Below, piece by piece: positions 1,285 through 30,700 of a stretch of 64,000 nucleotides of DNA. Source of the stretch: Owenia fusiformis (lineage: Eukaryota). Both the position numbers and the translations under genes were made by a program. Position 1 is the stretch's first letter. Each line of letters opens with the position of its first letter. Location: NCBI GenBank assembly GCA_903813345.2, contig CAIIXF020000001.1, positions 18,972,001 to 19,036,000 of the forward strand. The letters are read 5' to 3'. The notes under the pieces were generated by a model. The model worked only from the letters and a program-made list of their open reading frames with translations, ran no database searches and was not told where the DNA came from.

Positions 1285-3716
1285 CCTTGTCTCATAATAA
1301 TACAAACAATGTACTTAAAGATAAATAAGAGAAAGTTCAAATGTGAAAAAAACATCAAAAACAATCTTCTCATCAAAACTCATCTCATTAAGTCTTGTGC
1401 GTGTAATTGCATTCATTTTTAACAACCAATTCATGTAATTTTATAGATCTATACAGTCAAAGTAAATAATTTATTGAAAAATATATTAATAAATATATAT
1501 GTAATAGACAGCATGCACAATGGTTTGCAAATATTTCTTTAACAAGAAGATAACATTTAACATGGGGATGAACAATCCTACTTCTCAATAAGATAAATAT
1601 CTATATAGTATTTAATCATGGCAATAATACAATCAGCATACATGTACATTTATATACATAAGTACATTACATTTTAAATTTACAATATAAGAAAGTACAT
1701 AATAAATTATTTTCTGTACAACATAAGTATAAATACAATAAATGAGTCTTTTAACCAAAAAGTGCTTGTTTTGCATCATGTCTCTGGATCCCTCCCCTGT
1801 AGTGAAGTGGGGGGGGGGTCTCAGAGGCTTGATGCAAAACTATCTAGAACTGATCAACACTGTTTTGTGTTGTGCTGTTGTGTTTTCACAACACTATGAA
1901 TCAATACGCACTCACTTCTATTATTAAACCAAGTCATGTAAATTCAAAGAACTCGAACGGATTACTATTTCCCCTCAAATGTTTTTTAAATGTACCCAAT
2001 TACCAATAGGTCTAAAGTACCATAGTCGGTCCCTTGGAAATTGACAATTGCAAACTTTAATCGGAGCTTTATGGCCTATCCAGTGATAAATACAGTGATC
2101 AGTAGAAATTACACTAAAGGGATTAATTTCGCTGATAAAATGTTCATCTCTCCCATACAAAATTGGTATTATCAAAGATTAATGGCCAAATGAAATCATT
2201 ACACCATCATTACTATAAAGCATCATATGGAATCTATCTGTTAAATCACCATACATTTCACCTAGAACATTGTTAAAGTGCATACAGTAACTAGTACATA
2301 GCTCAACATGGAGATTTGGTGGAAATGAAAATATCTCTGAAGTAAATATCTCCCCTGAAATATCTGCCATAATTGAGTCACCATTGCAGACTTTCAAATG
2401 ATATATGAACACTTAGGTATCTACATGTACATGACATATTTGAAAATTAAAAAAAATTACATTACATTTTAATATTTACAAATTTCTTCATTCAAATAAA
2501 TGTACATAAGGTAAGAAATGTACATATTAAGCCTTACTAGCCTCCAAAATGTATATATCAAAATGTACCCCATATACATAACATCATAAGCAAAAATGAA
2601 GAAAATGTATTATATTAATATAGAGATCAATGTTTATATCTTTATGCCCCAATCTGCTATTTGAATCATCAACATACTTTGATAATAAGCTTCTTTCTGA
2701 AAGAATCTCAGCTCGAAAAAATTGTTCACCCCGTACGAGGTATGACAAGTGCAAATTATAAGGGTTGAATGCATGTATCTCTTATCATATCTAAACGGCA
2801 AATAATTAATCCACTGGCCAAAAAAGAAGATTGTAACATTGTAAAATTGTTTCAATTTCATTTAAATCATAAATAGGGCACTGGGCCACTTTAATAATTG
2901 GAGAAAAGCATATTTATCTGTACTATGTAGTACATCAGGTGAGTTTCTCTAAGGTTTAAACCTCAACATTTTCCACATTATGCTACTACTAAAAACGATA
3001 GTGCATAATGCCAAAACATGTGCTATTACAAGAAATATTATACAATTAAGAAATTTATAATTCAATAATAATATTTTCAATGTTTCATTATATACAAAAC
3101 ATAAACAATTGTCTTTTTTGATTTATTCATGACACAAAGGTGTCTCTCACTTTGTAATACACTTATGTGAATCTTATAGATGTTTATTACATGGAGGATG
3201 TATCCTCTCAATTGAAATACACTTCAACACTGAATTCACACTTAATATCTTCTACAATGAGATACTTCTCAACATTGACATAATCTTCAACAATGTTTTC
3301 CTCAAGTGAAAACATTCTACAAGTGAAAACCTTCTACAAGTGAAAATATTCTACAATATCTTCAACTACAAGTACAACAAGCCCGAAGCCCCCCTGGCCC
3401 AAAATCTTTCAAAATCATGCATATATCACCATTCTGAGCACTTTCCAGGTGATTTTGGGCCACCTTTTGGGAGTGAACCCCCTTGACAAAAGCTGGATAT
3501 GGGCTTGGGTATAAGGTATCCTAAATTGCAATATCTTCTACATTGAGTATCTTCTATTGAGATGTTAACAATTTACATATTCTACCTCAAAAATGCGGTA
3601 ATGTCAACTGCTATCACATATTTCACCATTCCAAATTGAGACAGCAAAATTAAGTGAGATCATGATTCCTCAGTTCATGTCCCCCATTCGATTTCACTTG
3701 GACTGACTCTATCAAG

Positions 3717-6700
3717 TTACTGTGGCTGCTCAGACGTAGAAGTTGTTTCGCCTAAAGCTGAATCTTTTTCGTTCCCCGATGTGCTAAAAAATGAAAATTA
3801 TGTTATGAAATATATATATCAGTTAAGTAGTCAGACATCATACATCGTTAATTGAAATATGTTACGCATACTCAACCTTTTAGTTCTTGTTACCACCTTT
3901 CATTTTTGCAATTTATTCAGAATCCGTCTTTGAGGGAATTCAAATACAAAAGGGTTTATCCCTATAATCTGACCCCTTTCCAAGGAAGAAGCAGACTTTA
4001 TGGAGAGCTACTTTGAATATCTATGATTCTTGAAAAGCATTTAAAAAATCCATGAGTGAATAAATATATATGTCTATTCAACCAAATAATTCAATGATTT
4101 TGATCAGTGACTTCTGATAAAGTACAATATATGAACTTATGAAGGCATCAGTAAAATCCATTTTATGCATTTTTAAAAAGAATCAACTTTTAAGAAAATC
4201 AGTTCTATCCGATTATAATGAGAGGGGGGTCAATCTGAAATGTTATTGATAATCGAAATATTGATCAGTTCACTAAGATCAAATACATAGCTCCTCTCCA
4301 TAGAGTTGGCCTCTTTGACTTACAGAAAGTTAAGATGACATGTACTGTATATGTCACTATAACTGTCATGCCATATATGTCACAATAATTGTAATGCCAT
4401 ACATGTCACAATAATTGTAGTTTAAGACTCCATATTATGACATTTCTTATTAGACAAAGAATCATGCTGAATAAACATCATCACCCATACATGCCTGAGG
4501 AATAACAATCCTATTACAATATCAAATCTTTAATTAATTGCAGAAAGGCTAGAAAAGATCTCCTGGTAATGAAAATGAAAAAAATAGAAAACACAAAGGG
4601 CAATATAAATAGTTCATGGTCTTGAATCATGATATTGAAGTTATATATTAACAAATTACAACATTGTTTAACTGTTTAATAACTAAATTTTCAGCAAATA
4701 CATGTTCTTCAAAATGTAATAATATAACATCAAATAACTATTATAGGAAGGTTTTAATAATTATCCTGATGTATAAAGTGATTGGTTTGAGACTATTCCC
4801 GAAGGTGAACCATTTCATGCCATTGAGGAAAGGCTTGATAATTGTCTAAATCTCCTGGTAAGACATTCAAATTACCAAGAAATGAATTTTCTAATTTTGT
4901 AATGATTTTCCTAAATAAGACCTATCAATCTGACAGAATACAAATATATTAGAGCGTTGAAAAATTCAGTTCTTTGTCGAGATCACGCCTATCAACCCAA
5001 GGGTATTCATTTAAAACAAAAACCCTATGACAAGAAAATCGAAACTAGTTTTCATGACAAGATTTAATGACCCTAAGTGACACTGAATGACAAGTAAAAA
5101 TTGTAATATTCTAATAACTAAAATAAGAATAAATGTGGTAAAAGTATTAAATCAACAGAATAATTATTTAAAAATAAAATGTGCACAATATCAAAAGAAA
5201 ATGTTGACATTACAAAAATGTGGATAGTTCATGATTTACGTCTACGTAAAAAGTGAAATCAAGATACAAGTGCAAAAACAACAGAAAGTGTAAAACCATG
5301 ACACACAGAAGTATACAAAATATAATTTCAATTTACAAATCACATTAGAGCCAAGAATACTTTGAAAATGTAGAAGAATGAACAAAGTTTTGACGACGCA
5401 CAATAGATTGACACAAAATAAATGAAGGGGACATGAAACATCAATTTTGTTCCGATAAACCACTCACCCTCCTTGCATGCAACATATCCCAGAAATCACT
5501 GTTTGCGTTAAGTTAACGGGATATTATTAACATGTCTTACTTATTTATATTCAGATTAGGTTTACTGCTTTTAATCCAGCGTGATTTATGCCTACAATGA
5601 GTGTTAGTAGTACATATAGTATTAGGATATAGTCACAGGTTGTTAGAAAACTATTAACAGATTGCATCAAGTCTCTGTGACAACCCCCTCCCCCTCTGCC
5701 ACACATATCCCAAATATTGTTCGATAAAATGCAGAGAGAGTGGGGGTGGTGGCCAGTGATTTGATGCAATGCTGAACTATCAGTATGTCAATCAATACCA
5801 CTTTCTGAATCAATCAATACCACTTTCTGAATAAATCAATGCCACTCTCTGAATATGGTCAGGATTTACAAGTGGTAGATGGTGATTATAAAAACATCAA
5901 ACTGCTTTCAAATTGTAGTTTAATACATTATTTTATCACATTTCTTTCAATATTAACTTAAACAATGGGAAGAAAATATTTCTGGTTGACTTAATACGAA
6001 GACTAGGTATTCAGAGAATGATATTATAATACACCATGAAAGACTTGATGAAATTAAATATACAGGGTACTATAAATTTTATATAATAGGCCAAGGAAAT
6101 TAATATAAAGCATTCATCAACAAATTAAGTATTTGGACTGCTATTCTACAATACTCGACCCATTTAATAAAGAAGACAATAGAAAACATGATTTGGAGAA
6201 TTGAGTTTAATTTCATCAAGTGATTTATGCTTAATACCCATGGACATTCATGAATATCACTACCTACAAGAAAAATTGTAAAAAGATTAGTGGTGACTAG
6301 CGACATCTATTTTTCTTTCACTGCAATAATTCAAACAATGGCTATCAGAAAAACTCTTCACTCTACTATCAAAAGCATTTATTTTAATGTTAATAAAGTG
6401 AAAATGATGAAATAAACTACAAAAGAAAAGAAAAGTGAGAACATCTCAGTGGCCGACAATAATGAGAAATTATTGTTGAACCCAAGCAAAGACTTTTCAG
6501 AATCTTTTGATTATTTGATCAATACTTTGATGAGCATTATATTTTCAAGTGTAACATGCATTTTCTCACATTGATTTTCATGTTCAAGCAAAACTTTTTC
6601 ATGAGTGAAAAGATTCAACCGTAACTTAAAACGTTATGTGTAAAAACAACAACTGATAGACAGCACTGAAATCAAACGTGAGACATACATATGGAACTTC

Positions 6701-9700
6701 GTCAATGGCTAAAGCAAAATTATGATCCCTTCTCGTATGGATTTCACCACCACGAGAGGATCAAACATGTGATGTTTATAAATAGTTAAGTTTATTTAGT
6801 GTGAGGATAGTTACACAATACACATGTATTCAGGGATTGCATCAAAACTTGACTGAACACTGAGACATTTTATTTGGAGAGGAGGGTGCAGGTAAAATGT
6901 AACTTTTCATCATATTCAATTATGGTACCAGGGCTTTTTGAGGGAAATGGAGGGATTGGATTTACATCCATGCATTTCTCCTGGTAGAGGTGTCAAAAGA
7001 TTTGATATATCCAGTTACCAAAATATGGCAGAGATCTGTGAGTTAAACTGAAATTAAGTTTGGGTTGACTTGCTTTGATGTTTTCATGTGGTCCCTGAAC
7101 ACTGTGTCTAAGAGAGTCACTTTTTTGTCAAGTTCACATTTTCACTCCATCTACCTGTCATTTGTTTATTCAGTATTTCACTCAGGTCTTGTATTGCCTT
7201 AATAAATCTACAAATCAACATTAACATCTACGATTCAATTAGTATATACATGTACATGCACAAGCATTTCTTTCAGAGTACAGGAACCAAACTAGAAAAT
7301 GATACACTTCACCAAATATTTTCTCTCAGAAAGGTAAGGCACCGATGATCTAATGATAACCACATTAGAAAAGGCTATGTTAGTTTTACATCAAGTGTTT
7401 CGTGCCCCCCCCCCCCTCCCCCCAGCCCTTGTGTTAATGCAAGAGAATAAGAGGTACCAACAATGGTACATGGTCTAAAACCAATGAATACCATAGTATC
7501 ACATTTCATTTGAATGATTAATTTGAAGCGTGATAAGCAAAACATTGCTATAGCTTGTATGTTACACATTTTACTGTACATGCACAATTGAAGGGCATCT
7601 CAGGTGGAAGTCTTCTCTGGGGAAGAAGCAGTCTTTGTCAATCCAATCCACTGGCCCCAGCTACAATTATTAGCGAGGTTAACAACATCCACGAGTCAAG
7701 ATAATACATGATTGTTAATACTGAACATTATAGCATGCTTATATTATGAATATATCACATTTGTACTCAATTGAAAACTTTGTTAAACATGCAGTTAGTA
7801 TAAAGATTTTTCAGATGATTTATGTCTTGAATTGTTTGTATTATATGCACTTTTCAACTACTGCCATGCCAACTTTGTAAGTCCAGTGAGGGCAGATGTA
7901 CCATGCATCACTTCAAGACTAAACTTAATTATTTCAGTTATTTAAAAAAAAAAAGAAGTTAATTTGGTTCCTAATCTCAAGATATTGATTTTTACCAATG
8001 ATAAAATCAATATCAACACCCATATGTATTTCAATTCCATCCTTGCGCCAAACAAAATGAATTTCATAATGAATATCAATTTTCATCTGCCCATCCATTT
8101 CATATGAATAATGTTAAAATGGTCACCTGTGTGTGCCTTGTCTCGCCATCTGATGAGCTTTTCTCTTACGCTGATAGTGACTCCTGGAAAAATATGTTTT
8201 AATTAAGAACATTCACAGTTACATTTATGTAATATCAATTGTACACTGTGAAGAGATGGGGAAATTGTCCAGCCTCTGAGAATTATTTTCCTTAGTCTGA
8301 AAAGGTACCAGTAAAATAAATAGCATATTTCCAATTCTTGTGACTGACTTAATTTCTTATTGAGAATGTAACCAGTCGAAAATGTATACACTCCTTGGGG
8401 TGTCAGTTCAATGTATAAAATATTCAAATGAAATAAATTATACTGAGACAAAGGTAATAAAGACCCCATTTACAGTACCTGAATCTTTGTTGAATAAGTA
8501 CAGCTGCACTTCGACTTTTCTTGAATCGTTCATGTTCCTTATATGTCCTGTATTGGTTCTGTATGACCATTGCTGCATCCCTGCTGCGCTTAAACCTCTT
8601 CTGGGCATAGTAGCTCCTGAACTGACTCTGAATCAACACTGCAGCCTGGGTCATCTTCTTATAGTAGCAGTACTGAAAATCAATCAAATCAATTAAACAA
8701 TTAATCAGTCAATCAATTAATCAGTCAATCAATTAATCAGGTATAAGTTATAGGGGGTGAGAAGAATGAGTAAAATTCATCAAAGTAATAAATGTGGATA
8801 AATACAAAAATGGTAAAATCTATGTATTTCAATGGATAAAGTATATACATTTTGCCCAAAAAATCTGATATAGAGATAATTATTTTCTTTCATTATACAT
8901 TTTCAGCTTACATTAACTGTGCATTTCTATGGTTGTCATATATCAAAGGGATTATACTATAGCTGTACATGTCTTGATTAAAAGTATAATATTTAGTACT
9001 GCATAGAGCCAATGGCAGATAGTACTGTTAAACAATTATGAAGCATATTGTGAAAATTCGTTTTAAGTACCAACTGCTGACAAATGGATGCTGTCACAAA
9101 AATGTTGATACAATATATTATCACATGCACTACTTTTTTGATGTGACATAACATCACAAAATAATGCACAGTCTACAGAATTTACAAAGTTTACCTGTTT
9201 ATATCTCCTGTAATAGCTCTGTATAAGGATAGCAGCATCGATCTCTTTCCTCTGCTGTTCTCTACGTTTCTCCACTCGAAATTGACGAAAAAAGTTTTGG
9301 ATTATCTTAGCTGCTTCATATAGCTTTCTTTGTTCCTGGTCTGTAAAAAGAATGAACTATTTTATGGACATCAATTTTCAGGGGAGAGAAAGCTCTTCCA
9401 AATTATTAAATAATTATTTCAAGGAGCTTTAATACTTGTCGATACTAAACATCCCCGGTCAAACCTTTTTTCCTGACTTTACTCGGGATTTCAACCTGTG
9501 CTCTGCTATTTTCTAAAATCATTTCTTCTTGATTAAGTGATTATACACAGCAGCAAACATAAGGTAAAGACGAAGTTTGCTAATTAACTTGACCATAAAG
9601 TGACAAAAGATAAGTGATTAATTATAGATTTAAGACACAAAACTTGATTTGTACAGAAGTGAAAATAGTTTGAAATTATTCTAGATTCAATTCCATATCA

Positions 9701-12700
9701 TTTATTTAAATTCAGTTTCCCTACCTGACAGAGTGAGCTGTGAAAAGTCCTTCTCCATGTAAAATGTGGGGGCATTGAAATATTCAAGAAACTCCTGGGC
9801 AGTGGGAGGGGGTGAATCAATGGACCAATGATATGGACTCTGCATGCTGGAGGACTCTGGGCTCAGACTGGAGGCAGGTGTGTCCAGATTAGGATACCTA
9901 AAGGTAATCGATTATCAAATATTAAATCAATTTGGAAAATGCATGTATCATATGGCAAGGGTTGAAATCTCTGAATATATAGCAATATATTCATACATTT
10001 AACTTTTTTATCTCCTGAAAGATGTTTCCTTATGCCTATTGTGACAAACACTGCCAAAAGACAACATACAATTAGTCATAAGAGATCAATAGTTCTCTAC
10101 AACAATTCATGCTTTAAAATATAACATTTATTTTAAAGCACTCAACAGGGTCATTCTGTGGTAGCTAAAACCCATTTCTACAATTTCTACATTACCTGTA
10201 ATTGTCCTCGAAACTGTACTGGGTGCATTCCCCCAAAGGAGTACAGATCCCAGAATCCTCTGCATATGGATTTGTCATCTCAGAGCTTATTGACCCAAAG
10301 GAACTATGGGAGCTGCTTCTTTCTCTGTATTCATTGCGAATGGTTGGTTGGTCAACCTGCATTTCTTCCTCAGCTGTATCAGAAGCATTTGGTGAAAGTT
10401 TGATGCGCTCGGGCATAGCTGCGATAATCTGTTTCGCTAAAGTTTCGATCTGGTTGGTACTTGCATCACCTGAAACGTAGAAATACCACAAGTTGAACAA
10501 AGATTTAATATGATAACTTCATTTATAACCTAGATAACATTTATGAGCTGATCATGAACAAGTTGGGGTCTGGCTCAAGAAAACATAACCAACAAAATTT
10601 GAAAAAATACTGGAATTTACTTAAGATTTCTGGTGCGTGTCTCATTAATGTTCGAATACAACCAAAATGAGGTCATTGAAGTTGCTGAAATGCACAGCCT
10701 GCCCCCCCCCCCCCACAGGTTATGGGCCTGAGTACATGTAATCACTGAAAAACCCTTAACATCCAATATGTGTTATCACCTTGTGATGCTGATGACTGGA
10801 GATTTTCCTCTTCATCGGAAGATAACCTTTCAACATCAATCAGGGGACTGGTCATCTCTTTATTACCTGTGGAAAATGCACAAACACATTAATACTTGTA
10901 TTTTTAGGTTTTAAGTTACTCGTTAGTACAATCTCTTCTGATCTTGTATTTAAATGTTTATTTTTAGTTTCATAAATAATACAAACATACTGTCCGATAC
11001 AAGGATTTGCAAATCTGCCATTTTGAGGCAAAGAGAAAATCAAAAAATTAAAAAAAACTTCAGATCAACTCACCAGTATCCATATATTGTGGGGAACTGT
11101 GGTTATGTTTACCACTATGTTGAGGTAGGTACATCAGAAATGTATTCAGATCTTGTTGACTGGCGGTGGCCATATTCGAGATCATAGGGTTTCCCTGTTT
11201 ATACATATGCTCCTTAAATGCATCGAGATTAACATCAGGGGCCGAGTTAACTGAACGTAGGGAGTGAGCAGGATTTGTGGATTTATGAGATGGCTTTGTG
11301 TTGTGAGAAACTGCCCCCTGGAGAAACTCAACCGAGGTCCTTTTACAGAGCTTCCTTGAGCTTTCTGGTGTAGATGTCCGAGGTATTCGTGGGGTTTTGG
11401 AAATTGACTGACTGGAATTGGATAACATGTGATTGTTTTTATCTGATTTGGGAATAATAATCCTTAGGTCCGAGGACCAATTTGCTCGTGGGGTATCTTT
11501 TTTCAAGTCCATATTAAATGTATCTGGATTCACAGCAGCACTCATCGGTGTGAATGTGGCTGACGGTTTACTCTGTTCAGGTGGTGTACTTAGTTGGTTC
11601 AAATTCAAAGATTTCACATTAGATTCCATTTTGGCACTGTCTTCAGTATTCCTACACCACATTTCAAGGCGGTCTATCTGGTCCGCCAAGTTGAAATGAT
11701 GGTGGTCTCTAGCGGCTGTAAGGGGAACTATACCATCCTTGTTACACACACTCAGGGCACTTCTGTCCCAATTATACAGCACCAATGCAGACTCTGATTT
11801 CCCTAAAGCACAGGCCCACATCTGCAAAACATGAACAAATGTAGTTCACATTTACATGAATTACTTGTATAAACAACATGTACAATATATGGGTCATTCT
11901 CCAATACTGACGTAAAATGACCCCCTGTACTTAAAATCCCATTTATGTAATTACATGAAGCTGTATGATATATTTATTGTTTCCAACATGTTGCACATAT
12001 ATTAAATATATAAATAAAATAAAATAAATATCATTGTAAATGTTTTTACTTGTTGTTGATTTCTTATAGTCCATTTGTCCAACATTTTTTTTCATTAAAA
12101 AACTGACATTTTGTGAAGTGATTTTTTGCAAGTCCATGAAATTTATAACCTGTGTCAGAGAACGTCCCAAAATGGATTATAAACAAATATACACATGTAT
12201 CTGTAATAAAAATCGTGCTAAATGAGTGAAATCGTTGGTTATTGGCATCATTATAAAAAAAAATTGACCAGCACTTTTCCAAATGTGTGGTGTCCTTCCA
12301 TATCACGACCAGACGAATTGTGCAAATATACTGCTAAAATGCGATTTTGCCCCCTATGTTGCACGATCGTTTGCCGAACGTCAATTTCCATTAGGCAGTT
12401 CTGAAATTTCTAGTATTCGTACTGCATACTTCGTCCTAGCCATGAAATTAGATTGCAAAAAAAATTCGTGTCCACATATCACGACCGTGACTGACGAAAA
12501 CTATTTTAAGCTTAAAATGCTTTCGTGCTCAATTTCAGTGTACACATACCTCGTTTTAAATGTATAATCTTCACGTGATATGGAATTACGTAATCATTTA
12601 TTGTTGAAGACAATATGGCGGCAAATAAAGGCGGGCTGTCCTCGTCGTGTCCCGGTAAGTAAGATCACGAACGATAAATCACGAAAGTGACGCACTTTCT

Positions 12701-15700
12701 AAATCATTCCACAATATGCTCCTAATGTTTTGGAACACTATAACACCAGTGTAAACAATTACAATGACCATAATACCGTAAAAATAAGATGATGTTTTTC
12801 CAATTTTGGTTCTATATTTTTATTTATCTAATTTAGCGTTCGTTCGTGATTTTTTGGACACGAAATCGTTAGTTTCGTGATTTTTTGGACACAAACACGT
12901 TAGTTTCGTGATGCTGTAGGACACAATCAGTTTAAGTTTATTTGGGTGTTCCATGGTTTGCAAAATAACCGAGGCTTATATTTTTTCTCTCTTATGCCAT
13001 GTTTTCAGTAAGACTAACGTGTTTTTCGAGTCCCGTTTGAAGATGTTTTACATGTATTCAGCTATTGGTTAATTCCAAATTTCAAGGGAAATAACGCCAA
13101 AACGTTAATTTTCAAGTGAAAATTGGCCAGAGTTCTATTAAAAATACACTTGTGTTTGCAGAAATGTTACAGAAAAAGAAATCACATTTAGCCCTAACAA
13201 GCGCCCAGCGTAACAAAAATTATCGTGAAAGAATGAAGTCGTCAGTATTATATGCAGAAGAATTCCGAAATATTAATGTTACAAAGTGCAAGCTATGGAG
13301 GATGAAAGTAAAAGAAGACAAAGAAAAGTTGGACTATCAAAGACAACTGAGTCGTGAGAGATCAAGAAAGTACAGGTAGGATCACCAAAACTTATTTAAT
13401 ATTTAATTTTACATGTTTTAGATAGCAACGTTTTTATTGAATTATGTGACATGGTAATACATAGATAATTTATCAATTACGGCAGTTCGAACGCACAGGA
13501 TGCTATTTAGAGGAATTTCTGATCTGATTACGTAAAATTTTGTTTCAGAGAACGGAAAAAGGCGTCAATGGCAACGGATTCGTCAATCTCAACGTCGACA
13601 TCTAAGACAAGAATGAAACCAAAACTTAAAGTGAAACTCAGAAGTGAAGCAGGAGAAAGGAGGAAGAGATGGAGATTGTCTAAAAGAAAATATAGAGAAA
13701 ACATGTCCTCACAGAAGAAGAGACGTGTAAATGAAAAAAGAAGGACTAAATATGTTAAGAATAAGGTAGGCAATGACAATTAAGCTTTTTACAATTTCTG
13801 CAAAAAATTGATTTAATTTTTCTTGTCAACTTGTCATTCTTGTCATTCAAAAAACATTTACTTTCATCGCAATTTCATTATATCTCTAGGAATATTCAAA
13901 TCAAATACGAAGCTTGAGTGAGGAGTCACCCCAAATAGCACCCAGTGATAGTGAGCAGGAGCATTCTGGCAGTTCCGTACAGACGCCATATAGTACCAGA
14001 CAAGCATACCACAAAGCAATGTCACGAGTTAAGTCAGCTCTTCCACACGACCCAAAGAAGTATGCCGTACTTGTAGAAAACCTGGCCTGTAAAGCTACCC
14101 CAAGGAAGAAGCGAGAATTACATGAGAGGGGTATTTTTCTAACTGCAGCTAAAGAAAAAGAGCTGGAGAGAGTCAACAGGATAAAACAGTATATTGAAAA
14201 TACAAAACAGATGAGAACAAAACAAATCCTGCAGAGAAGAAAAACACTGAAAGCAATGATGAAACCGACAACTAAGAATGAGTCCGAGAGCAGCTGGAGC
14301 TTCATGTTTAAGAGTTCAGCCATAGAGGATGAAGAGAGGAAGAAAAGATCAGACGCACTTGATTCAGAAAAAGTAGTTGAGGTAGAAAATTTCTTCTCTA
14401 AAGAAGAAAACGCAAGGACACTTTCAGATGCTAAACAAGCTAGTGTGAAAGGAGAACGACCGAGAAAAATTCTAGAAAAAAGCCTTTCATCGCTGTACAA
14501 AGATTACAGCACATCTAGTGGACATCATATAAGTTACAGTAAATTTTGCAAACTGCGCCCAAATAATGTAAAAACTATGAGTAAAAACATTTTTAATCAA
14601 TGCCTATGTGAGTATTGCACCAACATTGAGCTGAAGATTTCAATTATCAACAAAATTGCTGACAGAGATAGAACTTCAAAAATCCAAGACAAATATTCTG
14701 CAAGCCGAATCACACTTTGCAAAAAGGTTAGTTTTTTAATGATAACAATAAGCGAATGTGAGCATATTGTTCATTGAAGAGACATATTCCTTATAGTTTC
14801 GCTATTTGATTTGCATTTTAGAAGACGTGGTCCAGGGGACGTGGTTTTTAAAAAGGGTTTATGAAAAAGACCGAGCCCACCGACCACCGACCGGTCGGTG
14901 TTTTCCACAGGTAGCCTCAAAACAGGGTTTGAAGAAAATGGGTAAAAGACTGACCATTTGTGAAAAGTACCGACCATTCGTGTAGCCTTAATTTATTTTC
15001 GATTTTGAATACACGTCAATCGTATTTAACGTTTTTTGTCAATTTTAAAATGGTTGATTAATCTACACGATGTAATGTTACGTGTGTTCTTTTGCCATGA
15101 TCAAAAGTGACTCATCATTTACGCACATCATTGAGAGCTATTTTTCATATTGAATGGAGTTTTTATTGACGTTTAATAACTGAGAAATCAAACATTACGT
15201 GTTATTCTTTAAAATAAAAAAAGATAACGACGCGATCGTAAATCGTAAGATCGTAAATGTTATTGGCGTGCATATTTTTGATATTTTCATACTGTACCTA
15301 ATGTAATGCAACATGCGTTTTATGATCCAAAGTGACCAACCATATAGCAAAAGCTAGGCTATTGAATTGTCGTTTTTTATAGTTTTGAATGTCTTACCAG
15401 ATTGAAATTGGTCGTTCAACAACTGAAAATTAAAACATTATGTTACGTTTTTTAGAGGACTACGCGATTAAATGACAGACCTACAATCTGACAATATAAA
15501 TTCTCTTTTTATCGTGACTTAAAATGGTGTGCAGTGCCGAACCAATGTCCTATTAAATCTATTATTGTAATAAGTAGTGTTGTTATCCCAGATTGAAATT
15601 TGGTCTTCAAACAGCTCAGAAATAATACGTTTTGCTTAAAAATATGATCAGACCGCGACGTGGTTACGTTTTTCACGTGCGTTTTCGATCGTGATTTAAA

Positions 15701-18700
15701 ATGGTTAAACACATTTTAATCACGACCTGGTAAATCATTGGATTCCTTGTTTTTAGTTTTATTGCTTCCTCGAATTTTGCATCTATTCTTTATTCAAAAG
15801 ACTGACAGCCTACCACCGACCAAGCAGACCCAACTGTGGAGATTGAATGGTCGGTGGTCGGCGGTCGGTCTTTTTCGTAAACCCTTTTAAAAATACGATC
15901 GAAAATTATGCTTTAAATCACTAGCCCAACAAATAAGACATGTAATAAATTGCTTGACCAAGTTTTTTGAGACATAAGCTTTAATGTGTGATTAACGTAT
16001 TAAGGACATTAATTTTCTAGGCTGACGGATCAGACTTTTATTCCAAACAGTGCCTTGAGAGAGCGTGTAACAACTGTGGGGTATGGCACCTAAAAAACCA
16101 CATCGCACCGCTGGAGGCTCATTCAAATAATCACGTCAAATGGCAGAGATGGCAATCCCAAGTTTTTCATCACAGGGGAAAGAAATGCTCCAGAAAGATG
16201 TTGGTTACCAAACAGGGTGACTGGGAGACTTTCCAAAAGGAATTTCTGAATGAGATGGAAACATTTTCTTTGCACTTACATACTGCCAAATGGCAATATA
16301 GACAATTTGACTTCATAACTAAAAATGTACCGGTCAAAAAATGTGTCATGTGCCTCGATTTTGCGGAAAACTACACCTGCTCATATCAAGATGAAGCACA
16401 GGGTGCCCACTGGTCACAAGATCAGGTCACCCTTTTCCCCTCAATCAATTTCTACAGGTGTCCTATATGCCAAGAGATAATAAAACACAGCATCGTTGTA
16501 TTGTGCGACGATAAAAAACACGATAGTCTAGCAGTGAACACATTTCTTGAAAAAATTCGCGGCGAAATCGGAAAAGTAACAAATGAAATTGAAGGGGATA
16601 TTCTATTTAGTGATGGCTGTGCCTCGCAATTCAAGTCCAAACACCCGTTTTTAACGGCAGCAAAATCTCATTTAGCTGGCCGTCCTATTGACAAACACTT
16701 TTTTGGGTCTAGGCATGGCAAGGGGCCATGCGATGGGGAGGGGGGTGTTGTCAAACGTATGGTAACATCGGCAGTAAAATCTCGGCGAGCAATAATTTGT
16801 AACTCTGAGGATATGTTTGAATATTGCCAAAAGAATCTGTCAAAAACAGCTGATAACGACGGAGCATGTTGCCACAACAGGAGATCATTTATACATATTA
16901 AAGATGCCCACGCGATTGCTCACCCCATTGTTGAGATAAAACCAATACCAAACACTCGAAAATTACATAACGTGGGTAATTGTGGAGATTCTAGCCTCGT
17001 TTCAGTGCGAAATTTATCTTGCTTTTGTAACGTTTGCCTGGGTATTGACTTGGGTCAGTGCACGCAGAAAAAATGGGTTGAAGACAAAAAGATTGTTGAA
17101 ATTCGCCAAAAAACTAATAGATCCAATTCTGTCTCGGGTGTAAGACCAAGAGCTGGGCGTGTTATTGCAAGAAGAGTGGCAACAAGAGGTGGTCATGTTG
17201 GTTCTAGACGGGGAGATGCAACAAGAGGTGGACGGAGCGGGAGAAGAACAGTTGTTACAAGAGGCGGTACAGGGGCGAGAAATGTGAACACTGTTAGACG
17301 ATCACTCTTTGACACCTTCTCCATGTTGGGAATTGATGTGTCGGCGACAACATCTACAGGTAAAATTCATTGGATTCTTCATTCCTACTTGGCAAAAAGT
17401 TCATCGAAACCATTGAATAGGTTACAAGATTTTCTTATCGTCAACGCTTTCATTAGTCTCAGTTTGCAATTCTTGCAGAAATTACGGTGGATTTCAGAAT
17501 TAAATTTGAATTGTAGAACGAGGGGGGTTCAGAATTTTGATTTAGATCTAACAGTCGTTCAATGACTTTATTTCTTTTAGAGGATTAAAGTACGAGACGG
17601 TAAGTAAAAAGTGAATACAGGAGGCAATTTACGTAAAATCATGACCTTTGAAATAGAAGAATCCTCGTTATTTTCTCGTTTATTTCTTTGTTATTTAACA
17701 ATATTCTTTATCAAGTTATAATTTTCGTTCGTCAAAACTATTTCAAAATTGATTACAATCCGGTAATATTGTTATTCTAACAAATAAATTTTAGTTCATT
17801 TGTAACAGCTACACATTTTTATTTACATAACTAATTCTTGAAATAGTTAAGGGAATAATAATCAACCATTGTCTAGGAAACGTAGTCGACACATTTCAGT
17901 TTAAAGCAAAAAGAATACAGACACTTAGCGTTGCTTTAAAGTTGACTGAATAACATCTCTGAACATTAAAGTTTTTTCGGTATTGTGTCTTAGAAATTCA
18001 CTTTTAGAGGATTCGCTGTTATACGAGTTACTGTACACGCTGAGTTAACTTCTGTTTTTATTTTCAGGATGTATGAATGGAATTCATACCAGTGAATCTT
18101 ACAATGGACATTCGATAGATTATTTGTGGTTGACGTTGATAAATTATACTGTTATATGTTTTCATGTTAAACAGGACATTTCACTTTTTCTGTGGACGTT
18201 CAAGTTGTTATGCAATAAATTTTAAAAACGAAAATCAATGATTTTATTTTTACATTTAATTGGGCTTTGCATATGACAGAACATTAATACAAAACAGCAA
18301 AATTGTATTTATTACAAACACTGACATAACAAACTTTACGCAACGTACAAACCTCATCCAAAAAGTTCATATTGGAGCTCCAATTTGGTTCCGTAATCTT
18401 CTCTGTCCTCTCCTGTCCTTGCTCACGACCGAGACGGCTTTTTCATTATTTCAATATATGATTCTTAAGGCTGTCACTTCATTCTTGTTTCATAAAATTT
18501 ATTTCCCATATCACATGTACATGCAATTACAGAGGAATGGACATTGGAATATCAATCAGAATAAAATAAGAGAAAAATACAGAAGTGTATTAACGTCCGG
18601 TCGTGATGCCATAAATTAAGGGCTGATGTTCAAATAAACATTCAATGCAGTCTGATACAAAGTTTTTCAATTGAACAAGATATCCGTTGACTATTTATTT

Positions 18701-21700
18701 TTGATTTTTGATTTGGGATAATTCTGGTAATAAATCATTATTACAAGTATACTTGACAGACTATCACGACCGGACGATTTCCACCTGCTGTAGGAAACAA
18801 TGCTGATCTGCAAAAATAGTTTAACGAACTATCTTGTACAATATATATTCTGAAACTTTAAAGTGTAAAGTATCAGAAAAGCTAAAAATTGATCAGTTAA
18901 ACAACATTTGAAAAATTGACCCCTGGTTGACATTTTCGGGAGCAGTACTGGAGAATGAGCCATATATAAAACATCTCACATTTCAACATCAAAATGATTC
19001 AAAACTAAACAAAACAAATATTTCCATTTCTTATCAGATATCCTCAAATCTTTTTTCTTCATAGAGACAAACAAATAGGACATGGGGACAAATTGGAACT
19101 TCAAGTTTGCAAGATTTAACACATGCTATTGTTTGCTGCAACTATAAAATGAAGGACCCATGGTCCTGTGCTCACACAGTTTGGAACCTTCAGAGGAATG
19201 TATATCCTGACTTTCAAACAAAAATATTGATTTGGATTTGTAGTCTCAAACTTTGAGAAACTTAGATAGCGTAGTTGTGTGACCTAGTTTGATGACCTTT
19301 GACCTTGAAAATTTTACTTAGTCAGAGCTCAGTAAGGTCTTTTGTGATTAAGCTGACCAAAATTTACATCCAAAAATCAACTTTTTTGACCTTTCGAAGG
19401 TCACTGAAGGTCTTTCGAAGGTCACTGAAGGTCAACTAAAGGTCAAATCCTAAAACTAAGGTCAGATTTGAACTCCTGACAACTTGTAGATGATTTTCAA
19501 AAAAAAATTTGGTCAAAAACAAGCTGTTTACCAGAGGTGTGCATGAATTGTTGTCTAGGCCTAATGTATCCATCTCATATTCCAGCACAAGGTTTGAGTT
19601 CTCTGTCCTGAAAAACATCAAATGCACAAACATTAATTACATTTCAAAGCATCAAGTACCAAAACATTGATCAATGCATTTCAATACAATAAATACACAA
19701 ACAGATTACTGATTTAAGAGTAACATTACCATGTGTGAACTTAACTTTGAGATCTTGACATACATGTACACTGTACATTTCAAAAGAGTACCATTTATTT
19801 CGACACAAAATAAATTATTTGCACTCATTCAAAGCATTTACTGTAAAAAGATAACGGGGGAATATTTAAATAACAATTAAAAACAACTGCTGCAATCTCT
19901 CTGTCTTCTATTAAAACAGTAGCATTTTTCAAGCGTTGAAATGTGTTGACACAAAATAAATTAGATGCAATCATTCAGAACATTTACTGTAAAAATATAA
20001 AGGGAGAATATTTAAATATATCAAAAACGATTCCTCCAATCTCTCTGTCAGATAAGTAACAACCATCCAAAAAACTTAACAAATTTTGTATGTCTATTCA
20101 TTTATTTATTTTTTATTCATAGAATCCATTTTACAAATACATATATTATCAGCCACTTGAAAATGTATGTTTATCAATATCATCCGAAGGCCATTTACAT
20201 TCAAATTCAAAAAAGTGTATATAATATATGTGCATATACAATCATACAATTATTTATTTTTACATGATTGGGACAATACTGTTTAAGACTTCCCAGCCCA
20301 TTCATATGTGATGGATGTTAAATATTTGTAAGAGATCATTGCATTTTTTGGGACTCAATATAAGTATGAGTATGTTACAAAAAGGTTATTGCACTATCAT
20401 GGTCTGTGCTCTCATTGGTTGGCAGAGTGATGCTCCTGAAGGCCAGCATCGTCTGATTTTTATGTTTTATCAAACCAAATACCCAATACATCTATATATT
20501 CATCTACATGTATTCTCTTAAAATTAATTTTCAAAAAGGTTTATATACTTTATTTGGAGGGGGATACATCAAGGTGGAGTAATTAATATCCTGGGACAAA
20601 ACATCCTAGGGTGACAATCTGAGGTGAAATGGCTTTGTGGTAAAATGTCTAAGAGTTTAAGTCTAAAGAGTATTTGGATAACATACATGTATCACCTAAT
20701 GTGGAGAGTAGTAAGAATATAGTACATGTACAACAAGATAACTCCAACCAATAAGTTGTGAAGTATATAATATGTGTTCGTCTGAACAGAGAACATCATG
20801 AGAATGGAGAAGAGGATGGAGGCAAGGTAGTTCTGATGAGATCTGATCTGCGTATATTGGACTTTTTTAAATAGGGGAGCTTGATCATCCAAAGCGTTAA
20901 TACACATAAAGGTCCAAAAGTTGTCAGACTTTGCCCATCTTAAGCAGTTAGGGGTCTAACTTCATCTTGAGCTAATGCAGCCTTGAGATTAGACCAGAAA
21001 TGAGTTCCTGGCCATTGAATATAACTTTTCCTCTGAATCAAATGTTTCAACACTTTGTTTATTGGCTGAGCTAGAATGACCTCAGCTGGGTCGAGTAGAA
21101 TAAGCACTAAAACATCAACCCCTTTGTCAAAAAGAACATTTCTTGCCATGTACATTTCATACAAACAATACTGACTCGTGGAAAACTCTTTTGTGACCAA
21201 GAGCAATGTCTTACGACTTTTATCTACTGACTGAACTATGTTTTCCTGGATGTAGGTCCCTGGCATCCAGTCTCTTAAATGAATACAGAATTGGAAGTCA
21301 TTGTCACGTTCAAATGAACAAAGATCATCAACAACCCATTGTGTGCTATCAGCATGAAATGACACAAATGCATCATATTCAATGATGACTTCATTATGCA
21401 TTTCCATGAGTCGTTTTTGTCTGTATGACTTCCGGAGGACATAGTACCAATATCGTAAGGTCCATCTATTGTAATGCACAAGCTTTCCAATTGCAAGAAC
21501 CATTATAATACAGAGCAATAAAGAACCACTGATAACATATGGTGTCATGTCAACCCTGTGGCAATCATTCCAAAGTTCCTCTACATTTATCTGATCAAAA
21601 GCCAAAACAGAACCATTGTCAAAAACGCATTTGTACTCAAAGAAACCTGGGAACATTTCCCGCCTTTCCAAAGCTGTCATCCATTTAAGTGATAACAAAG

Positions 21701-24700
21701 ATTCACCACAGCCACATGTTAATGCATTCCCAGTTAGATCAAGTGTGTAGTTTGTACGTTTTTTTAAATCATCCAGCATTTGTCTTTGTTTTGCCGCAAT
21801 CAAATGTATTTCATTATGAGACAAGTTAATGTTTTTAATGTTATTGTGTCTTGATAAATCGAGAGAGAAGTTATATATTTGATTAAAACTCATATTTAAA
21901 TTTGACAGATTTACCATGTTAAATATGGCATTCTCCGACATATATTCAATATTATTAGCTGCGATATCTAAGGTTTTCATTGTTGTCAGATTGGCAAATA
22001 AACGTCCTTCTGAATCATGGTTTATCACCAAATTCCCCATGTTGTTCTGGCTCAAATATAAGGCCTCTAAACGTGGAAGATAGTCAAAACCATCTAGAGC
22101 AAAATAATTGAAGAAATTTCCTTGCATGTAAAGATATTGCAGCTTGTTCAATCCAATAATTGGACCGTTCCATTTGAAAATGTTAGCAAATGAAATATCT
22201 GCAATCCTCAATGAATTGTCACCAAGACAAGTGTATCTGTGGACTGCGTCAATGCCACGGCTTAAATGATGAAGATAAAGCTCCTCCAAATGTGGTGGCG
22301 CTGGCCACATTTCTGAGCAATGTTCAAACAATGCTTGAGAATCTCTCTTTTGTAGTTTCTTTGGAAATATCAAAGGCATCTGAAGAACGTCTCTCTTCTT
22401 ACGAGAACGTATTTGAAGAGGCCCCATATTTCTATCTCTTGGGTAGGATTGGTAACTAGCATCAAATGTACGTATGGTCTTTGAAATTGTCAAAATGTCT
22501 ATATATGGTATATTAACAATATAGTTCATGGCTATTTTAATATGTTCTATAGAATTGAGATTAAAGCTAAATCCTGGCATTAATATTGCTAAATTATTTC
22601 CACTGATATCCAGTGTTTTAAGTTTTGTAGATTGCAAACCTTTGAAAAAGTGCCTTTGCAGAACAAATGTGTTCCTATCATTCCTTATGTTTACTCTTGC
22701 TATGTTTAGCGATTCTATCTTCCTTGATATTCCTTTAAAGGCTTTGACTAAAGGTGAAGTCATTCGCATTGTCAGATGGCGATTATAGCTTAAATCTAAT
22801 TCCCGTAGATTATCCAATTTACAAAATGTGCATTCAGCTATACGTTTCAGTTTGAGATCACTCAGGATAAGTCTTGTCAAATTTGGAATAGAACCAAAAG
22901 TTTCATTTGTAAGATATTGTATTTCATTACTTTGAATGTTGATAACAGACAGTTGTTCAAGCCCAGCAAATATTCCTGGTGTAATATCAGCAATTCTGTT
23001 GTGAGAAAGGTCCACAATGCGTGTGTTTCTGGGCAGCCGAGGAATTGCATTTAATGATCTTGCCCTACAATCTACATATAACCCTTGATTCTCACTGTTA
23101 GTGTTACATGTGCACTCCCCTGGGCACAAATTAGAATGTACTTTTTCAACATTGCCAGTCTGTTCTAAAAGTTGTTTTGAATTATCATCTTTATTTTGTT
23201 GGAGATGTTCATGAAGAGTGTTGTCTCCAGTAAAGTTGTTTCTAGTGCTATAGCTGGTCTGCCCAATGTCCCTTTCAGCTCTACCATGAAGAAGCATAGT
23301 TGATAGGCCATGACTATGCAGGAGTATGGTTAGGACTACTGAAACAACTACTGCTGTGCAATTGTGTCCTTGTGATGCCATGTTCTTTATCAGGCATGAA
23401 TGGAACCCTTTTATTAAGTAATCTGCAACAAAAAGACATTAATTAAATTCAAAATTAAAACTTATAGAAAAAGACCTCTTATTAATAGTATTTGTACATA
23501 TAATTCAATCATTCAATCTGTAACACCTTGTCTTTCTGCCAACACCAGAAGATGGATCATATGGTTATACTTAATCAGGGGATTATAAACCCATTAACCA
23601 AAATTCCAATTACCAGGGAATGGCATACACACAAAGACAAAGAAATGTCATACCCATTGTAAGAGTTAGAAATTACCAAGGAATGCCATACTCAGACTAG
23701 AAATTACCAAGGAGTGGTATATACAGGGTGTCCCGAAAGTATGGGGCCCCCCCTAGGCAGACATATACCAGTGTCCTCATAGTATGTGTCATATATCATT
23801 TTAAAGCTTATACAAAGTTACATTGATTCGTCAAGTATCATGGTTCAACTTTCAAATGTGAAAAAATTACAGGCATTTCAAAATTTAGTGTTTGGTCAAA
23901 ATTAAGTTCAATTTTACACCAAATCAACAGTCAATGTGTCCTCCCGGGCCATCTTAACAGCAGCAATTCTTTTCGGGTCGGAGGGATATTGAGTTGGAAA
24001 AAGAGAATGGTGAGGGTAGAAACTCTAAGGAAACTGTTCTAAAGTCCCTTAACAGGTTTTAAGAGGGTTATAAAATTCCACATCCCTATTTGAAGGGCTT
24101 TTAAGGTCATATCTGAAAATAATTGCTGCTGTTAATATGCCCGAGGGGGGACACATTGACTAGTAATGTGGTGTAAAATTGAACTTTATTTTGACAAAAC
24201 ACTAACTTTTAAAATGAGTGTAACTTTTTCCCATTTGGGAATTAAACCATGATACTTGGCAAATCAATGTAACTTTGGATAAGCTTTAAAATGATATATG
24301 ACACATACTATGAGGACACTGGAATATGTCTGCCCAGGGGGGGCCCCATACTTTCAGGACACCCTGTACATAGTAGTTATAACCAAGGAATGCCATACTC
24401 AGACTAGAAATTACCAAGGAATGGTATAATCCAATTAGAAATTACCAAGGAATGGCATACTCAGACTAGAAATATAGTAGCAATTACCAAGGAATGACAT
24501 ACTCACAGTAAGTATAGCCAAAATGGCAATATCCAAGTAGTAACATACATGTATATTCAGTTGTGATAATCAAAAAGGAATGGCAAGCCCATAGTGTAAT
24601 AAAAAATAATAGCAATCCCACATACAGTGATAATGGCCTACATAGAGAGAAGCAAATCCTAATGAACCATTTGGAACAAATATTCAGAAAATGGTTGGTT

Positions 24701-27700: not shown

Positions 27701-30700
27701 CATGATCTATCATGATGGTACAATAACATTAAGATGATGATAACCTTTGTATGAACATCGGGTAAAACACCTAGAATTATAACCATCATTTATGAGCTCC
27801 AGACATGAGTATATGCATTGCATTTGCATGGAACATTTAAGCAACATATTCTTATAATACATTTACCGTATATAGACTTATCAATTAGACGACATCCAGG
27901 AAGGTCATCATATTAAAAAACATGGAATTAATATGTGGAACCCACTTCAAGCATTCAATTCATATTGATCAATATTGTATAAAACAATATCATTAATTCT
28001 TGGAAGGCCTTAATATCGACACAAAATTATATTCAACCATAAGCAACAAGCTGGTAAATAAATGTAAGTATAACATTTGTGAAATACATGTAAAGATCAA
28101 ATAATATAATATCTCACACTATTCCATCATTTGCGGCAATGTCAAATAATTTTTCTCTAACAAAACATGCAAGCAAAGCTTCATCCAGGCACCAACAGTC
28201 ATTGCAGTTTAAAGAGTTCAACTAAGTGGAGCACCCAGCCAAAAGTAGCTGGGGAGACCACAGGGTAATCTGTACAATTTGTTGGATCAGTGATTTTCCT
28301 TAATTGAATTTTTCTGTATTTTATGTGAATCTTTGAATAACAAAGAGTTATTAAGCATTCATGAACTGTATTTCGAATTATTTTCTTTCAGATTTAATTG
28401 AAAAAGAAAATGCGAAAAGAGTGGATATTTCTTATACTAATGGGATGTATTATCTCAATAGTAATACTCTTTCATTTAAGTAAATATAGCACAACAATTC
28501 AGCACCATTGGAGAGCACATATTCCAAGGAGAACTAATACCGCTATGGCAAGCAATATGTCAATTGCAAACAACCTACAACCACAAGCACCACACAACAT
28601 TGACTTCATTCAGAGAAACAAGGAACTTATTGACAAAATCAGCAAGAATTCGAGACACAACATTCCAAGAAACAACAAACTTATTGACAAAATCAGCAAG
28701 ACTTTAATAAGCAACATTACAAGAAACAAGGAACTTATTGACAAAATCAGCAAGACTTCGAGACACAACATTCCAAGAAACAACAAACTTATTGACAAAA
28801 TCAGCAACACTTTAATAAGCAACATTACAAGAAACAAGGAACTTATTGACAAAATCAGCAAGACTTTAATAAGCAACATTACAAGAAACAATGAATTTAT
28901 TTACAAAATCAGCAAGACCTCAATACGCAACATTACGAGAAACAACAAACTTATTGACAAAATCAGCAAGACTTTAATACACAACATTATGGGAAACAAT
29001 GAACTTATTGACAAACTCATCAAGACTTCAAGACGCAACATTCCGAGAAACGACGAAAGAGACATAACCAACAATCAACTCCCTATGACATATAATGATA
29101 GTAGAGTAAAGATATCACAGCAAAGGAACAGCCTACCCCCTGAGCTGGTAGAAGTCAAAGCAAGAGCACAGATGATCGCAAACAATAAAGTTGTCGTTGC
29201 AATCACTATGGTTAACATGGGATACCTATCACTAACCTATAGCTGGCTATGTAACACAGTCAATATGAACGTACATGATAATGTCCTTATTGTAGCTACA
29301 GATAGGAGAACTTATGAAAAACTCCAGCAAGACTGGCCAAATGTTGCCTCTGTCTTATACCCACTAAATGAAGACCAGGGGTCAAACTTAAATTACAATG
29401 CTCTTAACTATGTCAAGTACATGTTAAATAGGTCCAACTTATTGCTAGCTTTGTTGGGCTTCAACATACCATTGTTATTGTTTGAAGTTGATGCTGTGTG
29501 GTTTGCATCACCGTTTCCACTAATTCATAGTCTCTCTTACTATGATCTAGTAGGAGCAAAAATTGCAACCACAGAACAAATGGCTGGAGGTTTTCTTTTC
29601 ATGCAACCCACTAGAGACACATTAAATGTATTTACGACCGTCTCAAATGAATTACAGATATATCTGGATAGATATAAATTCTATAAGGGTGATAGACAAC
29701 TCCCCTATGAGATCAATGAACAAACACTTTTAAATGGAAATCTGAAATATGAAAATGGAAGGCCAAGACTTAATTATAAAATCTTAGACCTTAGCATTGT
29801 GGCTGATGGACAGTGGTATAAAAAAAGAGGTAAACAATCAATACCATTAGTTTTAAATAACAATTGGATTATAGGTAAAGAAGCAAAGATAAAGAGAGCG
29901 AAAAAATTTCACCATTGGTTTATTGATGATAACAACAACTGTGATTGGGAAGAGGTTCAAAATATAATGAAGTTAGGGAAAAATTTTCATTGAGAATGTC
30001 AAAGTTATTGAAAGTGAATGTAAAACCTTTATCCCATACTTAGTAGTGTTATAGGTAAATAACATGTGGGGATATAATCGATATCTGAAGTGAGCGGGTG
30101 ATATAATATATCTCCCGCTGAGGTCAGTGGGAGATATATTTTTGTGAATCCACACCCAGTTGAATTAAGTTGATTCACTGAGCCCACTGTGGCTTATGTA
30201 TGATGTTATGATACTTGTGAAATACTGCCATGAGTGTTGCTACTAGCTATAGGGCAGATAGGGCTTATTTTGATAGGCTCATTGTAGCTATAAATTCTTG
30301 ATTGGAATTTATGGATTCAATTTTGGAAGATGAGCCTAAAACCTAACGATAAGGCGAAATTGTATAACAGATTGAAAGGAATAAAGCAAAATAGATGAAA
30401 CATAACTCTATCAATTTTAATATACAAATGAAATCTTACCTCCATTTTCGAAGAGTATGCATGAGACCTGTGTAGCCTAGCGCAGATGCCATATGTAGAA
30501 TAGTTAGACCTTTCTCTGCAGTCATATGAACCGTGCTGTTTTTCTGCCATGTACATTGGATAAATGAGTCGATATAACACATCAACTTTTCCTCGAAATG
30601 ATCATGAGGTTGACTGATCAGTTTGTCATGCTGCAAAAAATTATAAAAATTTATTAGTTTGTTGCTTCAATTCATGGTTGATTGAATCCACGCCCAATTG

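Follow-up and report, generated by a model that had tools for sequence, protein, structure and literature searches.

A proposed set of frame-setting cassette exons in the last CAMTA intron of Owenia fusiformis, including a microexon that probably predates the protostome-deuterostome split

The minus strand of a 64,000-nucleotide (nt) stretch of DNA from the annelid Owenia fusiformis (contig CAIIXF020000001.1, positions 18,972,001 to 19,036,000; this whole stretch is called the window, and its first letter is position 1) carries a CAMTA gene, and the subject of this report is the last intron of that gene, which holds candidate alternative exons, among them a 31-nt microexon, ahead of a terminal exon that is open in all three frames. 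The CAMTA identity of the gene is supported by CG-1, TIG, Ank and IQ domains detected with Pfam on this strand. The N-terminal CG-1 DNA-binding domain lies in two upstream minus-strand open reading frames (ORFs), at 41664-41882 (expectation value, E, 1.4e-18) and 40813-41112 (E 6.5e-11), the IQ motifs lie in the exons at 9195-9338 and 8479-8672, and the Owenia protein record P0179 contains TIG (E 1.7e-7), IQ (E 6.3e-10) and Ank_2 (E 8e-4, below the Pfam cut-off) matches. The exon at 8479-8672 has 100% identity with the partial O. fusiformis protein P0001, and a protein search with this IQ exon placed 1,514 of 1,685 candidates at E<=0.001, with the best 120 listed. Of the public Owenia proteins, P0179 ends in the tail made by direct splicing to the terminal exon and P0001 ends in RHKSRWIK; the 31-nt microexon is absent from both.

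Splicing was followed over the region 1500-10600 in three sets of raw stranded RNA reads (X15, X16 and X17), chosen by species label, and in Logan contigs (X1), which are taken to be RNA-derived because they are spliced; all reported junctions have GT..AG ends and minus-strand orientation. Junctions connect the upstream exons in the order 10196, 9897-9725, 9340-9195, 8672-8479 and 8183-8127, and these exons form one open frame on translation. The features in and around the switch are as follows.

8479-8672, minus strand: upstream IQ-motif exon of 194 nt (Pfam IQ E 5e-9), with junctions 9195>8672 and 8479>8183.
8127-8183, minus strand: 57-nt exon, the final constitutive coding one ahead of the switch, with junctions 8479>8183 and 8127>3783 (X1 contig and raw reads).
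7600-7660, minus strand: alternative terminal exon proposed earlier, lying after ..aattgtag and giving SWGQWIGLTKTASSPEKTST and a stop; not supported.
7155-7207, minus strand: 53-nt cassette exon with GT..AG ends and junctions 8127>7207 and 7155>3783.
5541-5591, minus strand: 51-nt in-frame exon encoding RHKSRWIKSSKPNLNIN(N), to which the RHKSRWIK tail of P0001 maps, with donor junction 5541>3783.
5468-5498, minus strand: 31-nt microexon encoding (S)DFWDMLHARR, recognized from its sequence and from the acceptor junction 8127>5498.
3717-3783, minus strand: start of the terminal exon and its coding part, open in all three frames, with junctions from 8127, 7155 and 5541.
1500-3716, minus strand: 3' untranslated region, continuing to the limit of the analysed region or beyond, traced by stranded reads and X1 contigs over 1500-3700 in minus-strand orientation.

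The exon at 8183-8127 lies between ..ttttccag and gtgacc; its translation is xSHYQRKRKAHQMARQGTH, with the tail ..SHYQRKRKAHQMARQGTH, and it ends in AG at phase 2. The first base of the terminal exon is 3783, behind ..ttttttag. The original prediction, which was made from the DNA letters, described this phase-2 exon (..GTH AG) and a terminal exon open in two frames; the sequence agrees, and the third frame is open too. Direct splicing gives the tail STSGNEKDSALGETTSTSEQPQ and the stop TAA at 3717-3719, which is also the stop of the path through the 51-nt exon. The 53-nt exon shifts the frame by +2 and gives RFIKAIQDLSEILNKQMT followed by AHRGTKKIQL, the translation of the third frame of the terminal exon, up to the stop TAG at 3752-3754, and the microexon shifts the frame by +1 and gives SDFWDMLHARR followed by HIGERKRFSFRRNNFYV and the stop TGA at 3730-3732. 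The direct tail is acidic and Ser/Thr-rich as had been predicted (22 residues, net charge -3), and its junction, 8127>3783, is present in RNA; the microexon path yields a tryptophan (Trp)-containing 11-mer plus a 17-residue basic tail (net charge +4 over 28 residues). The predicted length of 31 nt for 5498-5468, its GTGAGT donor and the basic/aromatic tail that follows were all borne out by the sequence, in which the donor (AGG/gtgagt) has the consensus form and the acceptor reads ..cgcaaacag. Because only 42 nt (5499-5540) lie between the donor of the 51-nt exon (5541) and the acceptor of the microexon (5498), these two exons may be mutually exclusive on steric grounds.

The direct junction 8127>3783 is found in an X1 contig of depth 343 and in two, zero and two reads of X15, X16 and X17, respectively. 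The 53-nt cassette, with X1 depths of 331 (8127>7207) and 369 (7155>3783), is about as abundant in X1 as direct splicing and has 0 reads in X15, X16 and X17. The original prediction missed both this exon, which is the main alternative in RNA, and the 51-nt exon, which is part of an annotated protein, so its account of the alternatives was incomplete. P0001 ends within the 51-nt exon, the acceptor of which is preceded by a branch-point-like tactaac..tag; the junction 5541>3783 is present in one X1 contig (depth 30.5) that also spans 5541-6558, and 8127>5591 is not listed in X1 or in X15-X17. The junction 8127>5498 occurs in one X1 contig of depth 72.7, and the microexon acceptor is used in Owenia RNA. 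The exon at 7660-7600, which had been put forward as a third option, was rejected: there is no junction to 7660 in the four runs, its peptide has no match among 179 homologues, and 7600-7660 is covered only by an intron-level X1 contig (7477-7852, depth 31).

To assess conservation of the microexon peptide, the 11-mers found at this position in Lineus, Potamilus, Ostrea and Argopecten were compared by BLOSUM62 with all stop-free 11-mers, of which the last intron has 4,025 (both strands) and the whole window 63,990. The score of SDFWDMLHARR is 143; the runner-up reaches 56 in the intron and 78 in the window. Judged by its sequence, SDFWDMLHARR is more than a chance open frame. Its counterparts in molluscs and a nemertean are GDLWDMMHTVR (Lineus), GDLWNFLHVHR (Potamilus), GDFWNVWNVHR (Mercenaria), SELWKFVHVRR (Ostrea) and RELYQLIQVVR (Biomphalaria), those of arthropods are NVWDLWHGRA (horseshoe crab), NSVWDYFQGKA (spiders) and NIWDGNLATV (Drosophila), and a second annelid, Dimorphilus, has GHMMEMFEVVR. 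The hemichordate Saccoglossus has an in-frame RVIWDMKE after ..NRH at the matching site, and the mammalian counterpart is SPLVDHRLYKR. The Owenia microexon fits the pattern x[DE][FLV]W[DKN].. of protostomes and hemichordates. None of the 179 homologues matches the peptide of the 53-nt or the 51-nt exon, blastp-short with the tails gave no significant matches beyond the Owenia records themselves, and a motif scan of 312 proteins gave no further microexon forms. When the 64-residue IQ exon was searched against representatives at 50% identity, multi-IQ ASPM-like proteins came out on top and nothing was added.

Tails were compared among the 120 listed IQ-exon matches, 20 clusters, long CAMTAs and arthropods, and the switch sits at one point, directly after the last IQ-region exon; in other taxa the microexon insert follows ..RRCRH, ..QSKN or ..QSRI directly. 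Microexon forms were found in insects, chelicerates, molluscs, a nemertean, a brachiopod, the second annelid and mammals, and representative pairs of tails are listed below (a plus sign marks a junction).

Scallops: direct ..GD+SSNPEENST..; microexon ..GD+RDVWKIVHLRR+..LQPRGKQHSLRQHSAGGIRH, then a stop.
Mytilus: direct ..PD+STQADQ..; microexon ..PD+REWKIVHVRR+HTSRPKQ.., then a stop.
Dimorphilus (annelid): direct ..LD+STLNADG..; microexon ..+GHMMEMFEVVR+HTQCRRNIASHRSAPYF, then a stop.
Drosophila simulans: direct ..QSRI+KLQKERAEKEK..; microexon ..QSRI+NIWDGNLATV+TTERASRKREAG..
Mammals (rodent and primate CAMTA1): direct ..RCRH+RVKELKKAKELEDIQQHPLAM (RVKELKK..); microexon ..RCRH+SPLVDHRLYKR+SERIEKGQGT, then a stop.

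The two CAMTA1 isoforms that the original prediction gave for human both exist in rodent and primate records, and no human record was among those retrieved. Of 36 matches picked by taxon from an arthropod-rich list of 120, 24 have the insert after ..QSKN or ..QSRI, 11 continue directly with KLQ.. and one (Chironomus) falls off the anchor. The deduced exon length is 31 nt in Owenia (where it is read from DNA), Lineus, unionids, Ostrea, scallops and mammals, and 28 nt in Mytilus and insects, and both lengths leave a remainder of one when divided by three. No microexon isoform was found among the listed cluster members of Diadema, Tigriopus, Watersipora and Zeugodacus.

A two-frame test asked whether a frame shift lets the DNA of the direct tail encode the tail of the microexon form. 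The Owenia controls, taken from DNA, were compatible over 18/18 and 11/11 positions, and compatibility extended to 16 of 19 non-control isoform pairs, in runs of 11-40 residues with one constant shift, compared with maxima of 6 to 11 for shuffled tails. Compatible runs extend to codon 1 or 2 of the direct tail, or to codon 3 in Biomphalaria, whose comparison began two residues upstream of the junction. The compatible set comprises two scallops, two Mytilus, Lingula, a unionid pair, primates, Dimorphilus, Mercenaria and Biomphalaria, together with the insects Culex, Anopheles, Stomoxys/Teleopsis, Wyeomyia/Uranotaenia, Cryptotermes and Periplaneta. The three pairs that were not compatible are Lineus, whose direct tail of only four residues is uninformative, Ostrea isoform X1, which has a read-through-like tail, and Lepisosteus versus Danio isoform X13, in which the Danio form returns to the original frame.

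We consider it very probable that the last CAMTA intron of Owenia is a set of alternative cassettes which sets the frame of the terminal exon, and that the microexon predates the split of protostomes and deuterostomes because it is orthologous to the 31-nt exon of mouse and the 28-nt exon of fly. A microexon known from other animals has a genuine, unannotated orthologue in the 31-nt stretch, and the tail switch appears to be as old as bilaterian animals. The suggestion in the original prediction that the switch may be ancient was well founded: position, phase 2 and length class (28/31 nt) match the mammalian CAMTA1 exon, and the switch is present in other phyla as well.

Several observations weigh against this reading, and some of them favor other explanations. 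The prediction that the microexon is an alternative exon stands with respect to its acceptor, which one contig joins to 8127; as for its donor, the junction 5468>3783 is not listed in any of the four runs, in which coverage is too thin to exclude it, and the raw runs had only 0-3 reads per constitutive junction and no power for minor isoforms. One depth label, 72.7, is attached both to the contig that covers 5346 and to the contig entering at 5498, and because these equal labels are taken to denote one contig, the transcript entering at 5498 appears to read through the donor at 5468, to a protein end of ..HARRVSGLSEQN and a stop. It is therefore conceivable, if rather unlikely, that the exon starting at 5498 is in Owenia mainly an alternative last exon or retained-intron form, in which the donor at 5468 is ignored, the protein ends in ..SDFWDMLHARRVSGLSEQN and a stop, and the cassette is rare or absent: the sole contig with the 5498 acceptor seems to extend to ~5193, and annotated isoforms of Ostrea, Biomphalaria, Dimorphilus and Sminthopsis parallel it, with V[SG].. 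right after the microexon. However, the donor matches the consensus, 17 codons of the terminal exon are open in the +1 frame, and spliced cassette isoforms are annotated in Dimorphilus and many other phyla. In addition, no AATAAA or ATTAAA is present on reading 5150-5230, intron-level depth continues downstream, as would be expected of slow splicing more than of a defined 3' end, and contigs drop rare variants. We infer that the 31-nt exon may be used as a full cassette in Owenia.

The depth of the homology raises a related objection, as the vertebrate 11-mer is identical to that of Owenia at only ~3 positions, so that homology with vertebrates rests on position, phase and length. The exon could be ancient in protostomes and the vertebrate 31-nt exon an independent, convergent acquisition at the same intron, a proposal we regard as improbable; SPLVDHRLYKR lacks Trp, and most microexon positions shared by fly and mammals are argued to be convergent in PMC8797185, but the intron, entry phase, frame shift and 31-nt length are all equal, and the hemichordate ..NRH+RVIWDMKE.., with its protostome-like IWDM at the same site, bridges both groups. 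The 3' splice site of the microexon has a poor pyrimidine tract, which, together with the unseen full cassette junction, would suit a chance open frame or a dead relic without a role. This last explanation is hardly credible and close to refuted, given a peptide score far above those of the other 11-mers in the window, the correct phase and intron, the consensus donor and the use of the acceptor in RNA. Further points concern function: the tissue labels of the Owenia runs are coded, and neuron-specific inclusion would be expected by analogy with fly and mouse; moreover, the alternative tails are not alike between phyla, and their basic character may be a by-product of frame-shifting acidic codons. 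Because of these two properties of the tails, the conserved functional part of the switch is probably the microexon peptide combined with loss of the acidic tail.

In the switch of frame-setting cassettes proposed here, skipping of all cassettes would produce the acidic, Ser/Thr-rich tail, inclusion of the 53-nt exon would place the terminal exon in the +2 frame, and inclusion of the microexon, which adds one base modulo three, would place it in the +1 frame to give the Trp 11-mer and the basic tail, with the donor at 5468 presumably joined to 3783. None of the isoforms would be expected to be a target of nonsense-mediated decay, because all three stops lie in the last exon. It is possible that a change directly after the calmodulin-binding IQ motifs alters calmodulin or partner binding, or nuclear localization, a suggestion made with low confidence. 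By analogy with other systems, inclusion may be driven by Srrm234/eMIC-type or Rbfox-type factors. A UGCAUG site of the Rbfox type lies within the microexon (5476-5481) and another, at 7255-7260, precedes the 53-nt exon by 48 nt; the last intron (3784-8126, minus strand) makes up 6.8% of the window and holds 7 of its 23 sense-strand UGCAUG sites, a count made post hoc, and the hexamer is not enriched across the window (41 sites versus 45 expected).

Other features of the locus lie outside the switch. A short repeat at ~3400-3490, within the 3' untranslated region, reaches ~50-fold depth on both strands in each of X15, X16 and X17 and very high X1 contig depth, with many loose-ended reads and joints that go back to a G-run near 7427 (7422-7427); it is probably an abundant dispersed repeat and not part of the splicing switch. 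Within CAMTA introns, a single ORF of 832 residues on the CAMTA strand (20943-23438, minus) looks Toll-like-receptor-like (LRR_8 E 1.4e-31, TIR E 2.4e-10), and two tandem ORFs on the opposite strand (32905-33642 and 34904-35686, plus) combine a Gly-Pro-rich collagen-like stretch with a C-type lectin domain (E 1.7e-20 and 6.6e-22) and are collectin-like genes. Also nested there are a 531-residue ORF with a nucleotide-diphospho-sugar transferase domain (28398-29990, plus; E 1.7e-22) and several long ORFs of up to 514 residues without a Pfam match (13095-17562, plus), which may belong to a mobile element or to a further nested gene. Inside the large CAMTA ORF at 37953-39365 (minus), a short-period tandem repeat at 38607-39128 leaves several frames open on both strands, with readings such as ..SQWHTQ.. 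(minus) and ..ECATGI.. (plus).

CAMTA microexons deduced to lie at this site have been recorded in mouse and fly. The supplement of PMC8797185 lists a 31-nt exon of mouse Camta1 (MmuEX0009018) as 'Neural' and a 28-nt exon of fly Camta (DmeEX0003698) as 'eMICdep' and 'pan-neuronal', and PMC8042270 reports that fly heads are enriched for the 28-nt microexon by reverse transcription PCR; Camta is not mentioned in the supplements of the latter paper that were examined. According to PMC12868881, perturbation of the mouse Camta1 microexon alters the timing of neuronal gene expression. Camta1 is treated as an Rbfox1 target in PMC6715404 and PMC12713644, and by our own reading of the sequence a reverse primer given in the latter falls in the dual-coding start of the terminal exon. 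No paper on cross-phylum conservation of the CAMTA microexon came up in a literature search, although the supplements of a 2019 Nat Ecol Evol paper on microexon origins may bear on it, and nothing came up on the splicing of CAMTA in Owenia.

Between flies and mammals, rewiring of the neural microexon programmes is considered to have been nearly complete, and the main text of PMC8797185 names only four exons at equivalent positions in the two, in spg, EndoB, unc-13 and unc-104, with Camta not among them. If the present interpretation is true, a Camta microexon that annelids and mammals share in position, phase and length class would be one of the rare ancestral exons in the neural programme, in a host that is a calcium-responsive transcription factor and whose mouse microexon already has a measured effect on when neuronal genes are expressed. 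There is about an even chance that the CAMTA switch is one of very few neural microexons that have kept their position, phase and length class throughout Bilateria (annelids, molluscs, nemerteans, brachiopods, arthropods, hemichordates and vertebrates), under a dual-coding constraint since their ancestor and with the Owenia terminal exon translated in all three frames. The system would also offer a tractable case of a terminal exon that has stayed open in two frames, or three in Owenia, over very long times, and the Owenia gene model gains at least two unannotated isoforms.

Compared with these known systems, the Owenia microexon resembles the mouse Camta1 exon in lying directly after the last IQ-encoding exon, in its entry phase of 2 and in its length of 31 nt, and its inclusion would likewise shift the terminal exon into the same relative frame and swap the C-terminal tail. 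It differs in its peptide, to which that of mouse is only weakly alike and has no Trp, and the Owenia intron holds the additional 53-nt and 51-nt exons, which have no counterpart among the 179 homologues. The fly Camta exon shares with Owenia its site, its phase, a length of 1 modulo 3 and a terminal exon open in two frames, and an xWD motif is common to both (NIWDGNLATV in D. simulans, N[LVT]WD.. in other arthropods), whereas its length is 28 rather than 31 nt; the VastDB exon of Drosophila melanogaster is tied to the isoforms of other flies by deduced length and site, not by D. melanogaster sequence. As in other dual-coding terminal exons that follow frame-shifting alternative exons, one stretch of DNA would here encode two conserved tails chosen by upstream splicing, and in Owenia the third frame is used too, through the 53-nt exon.

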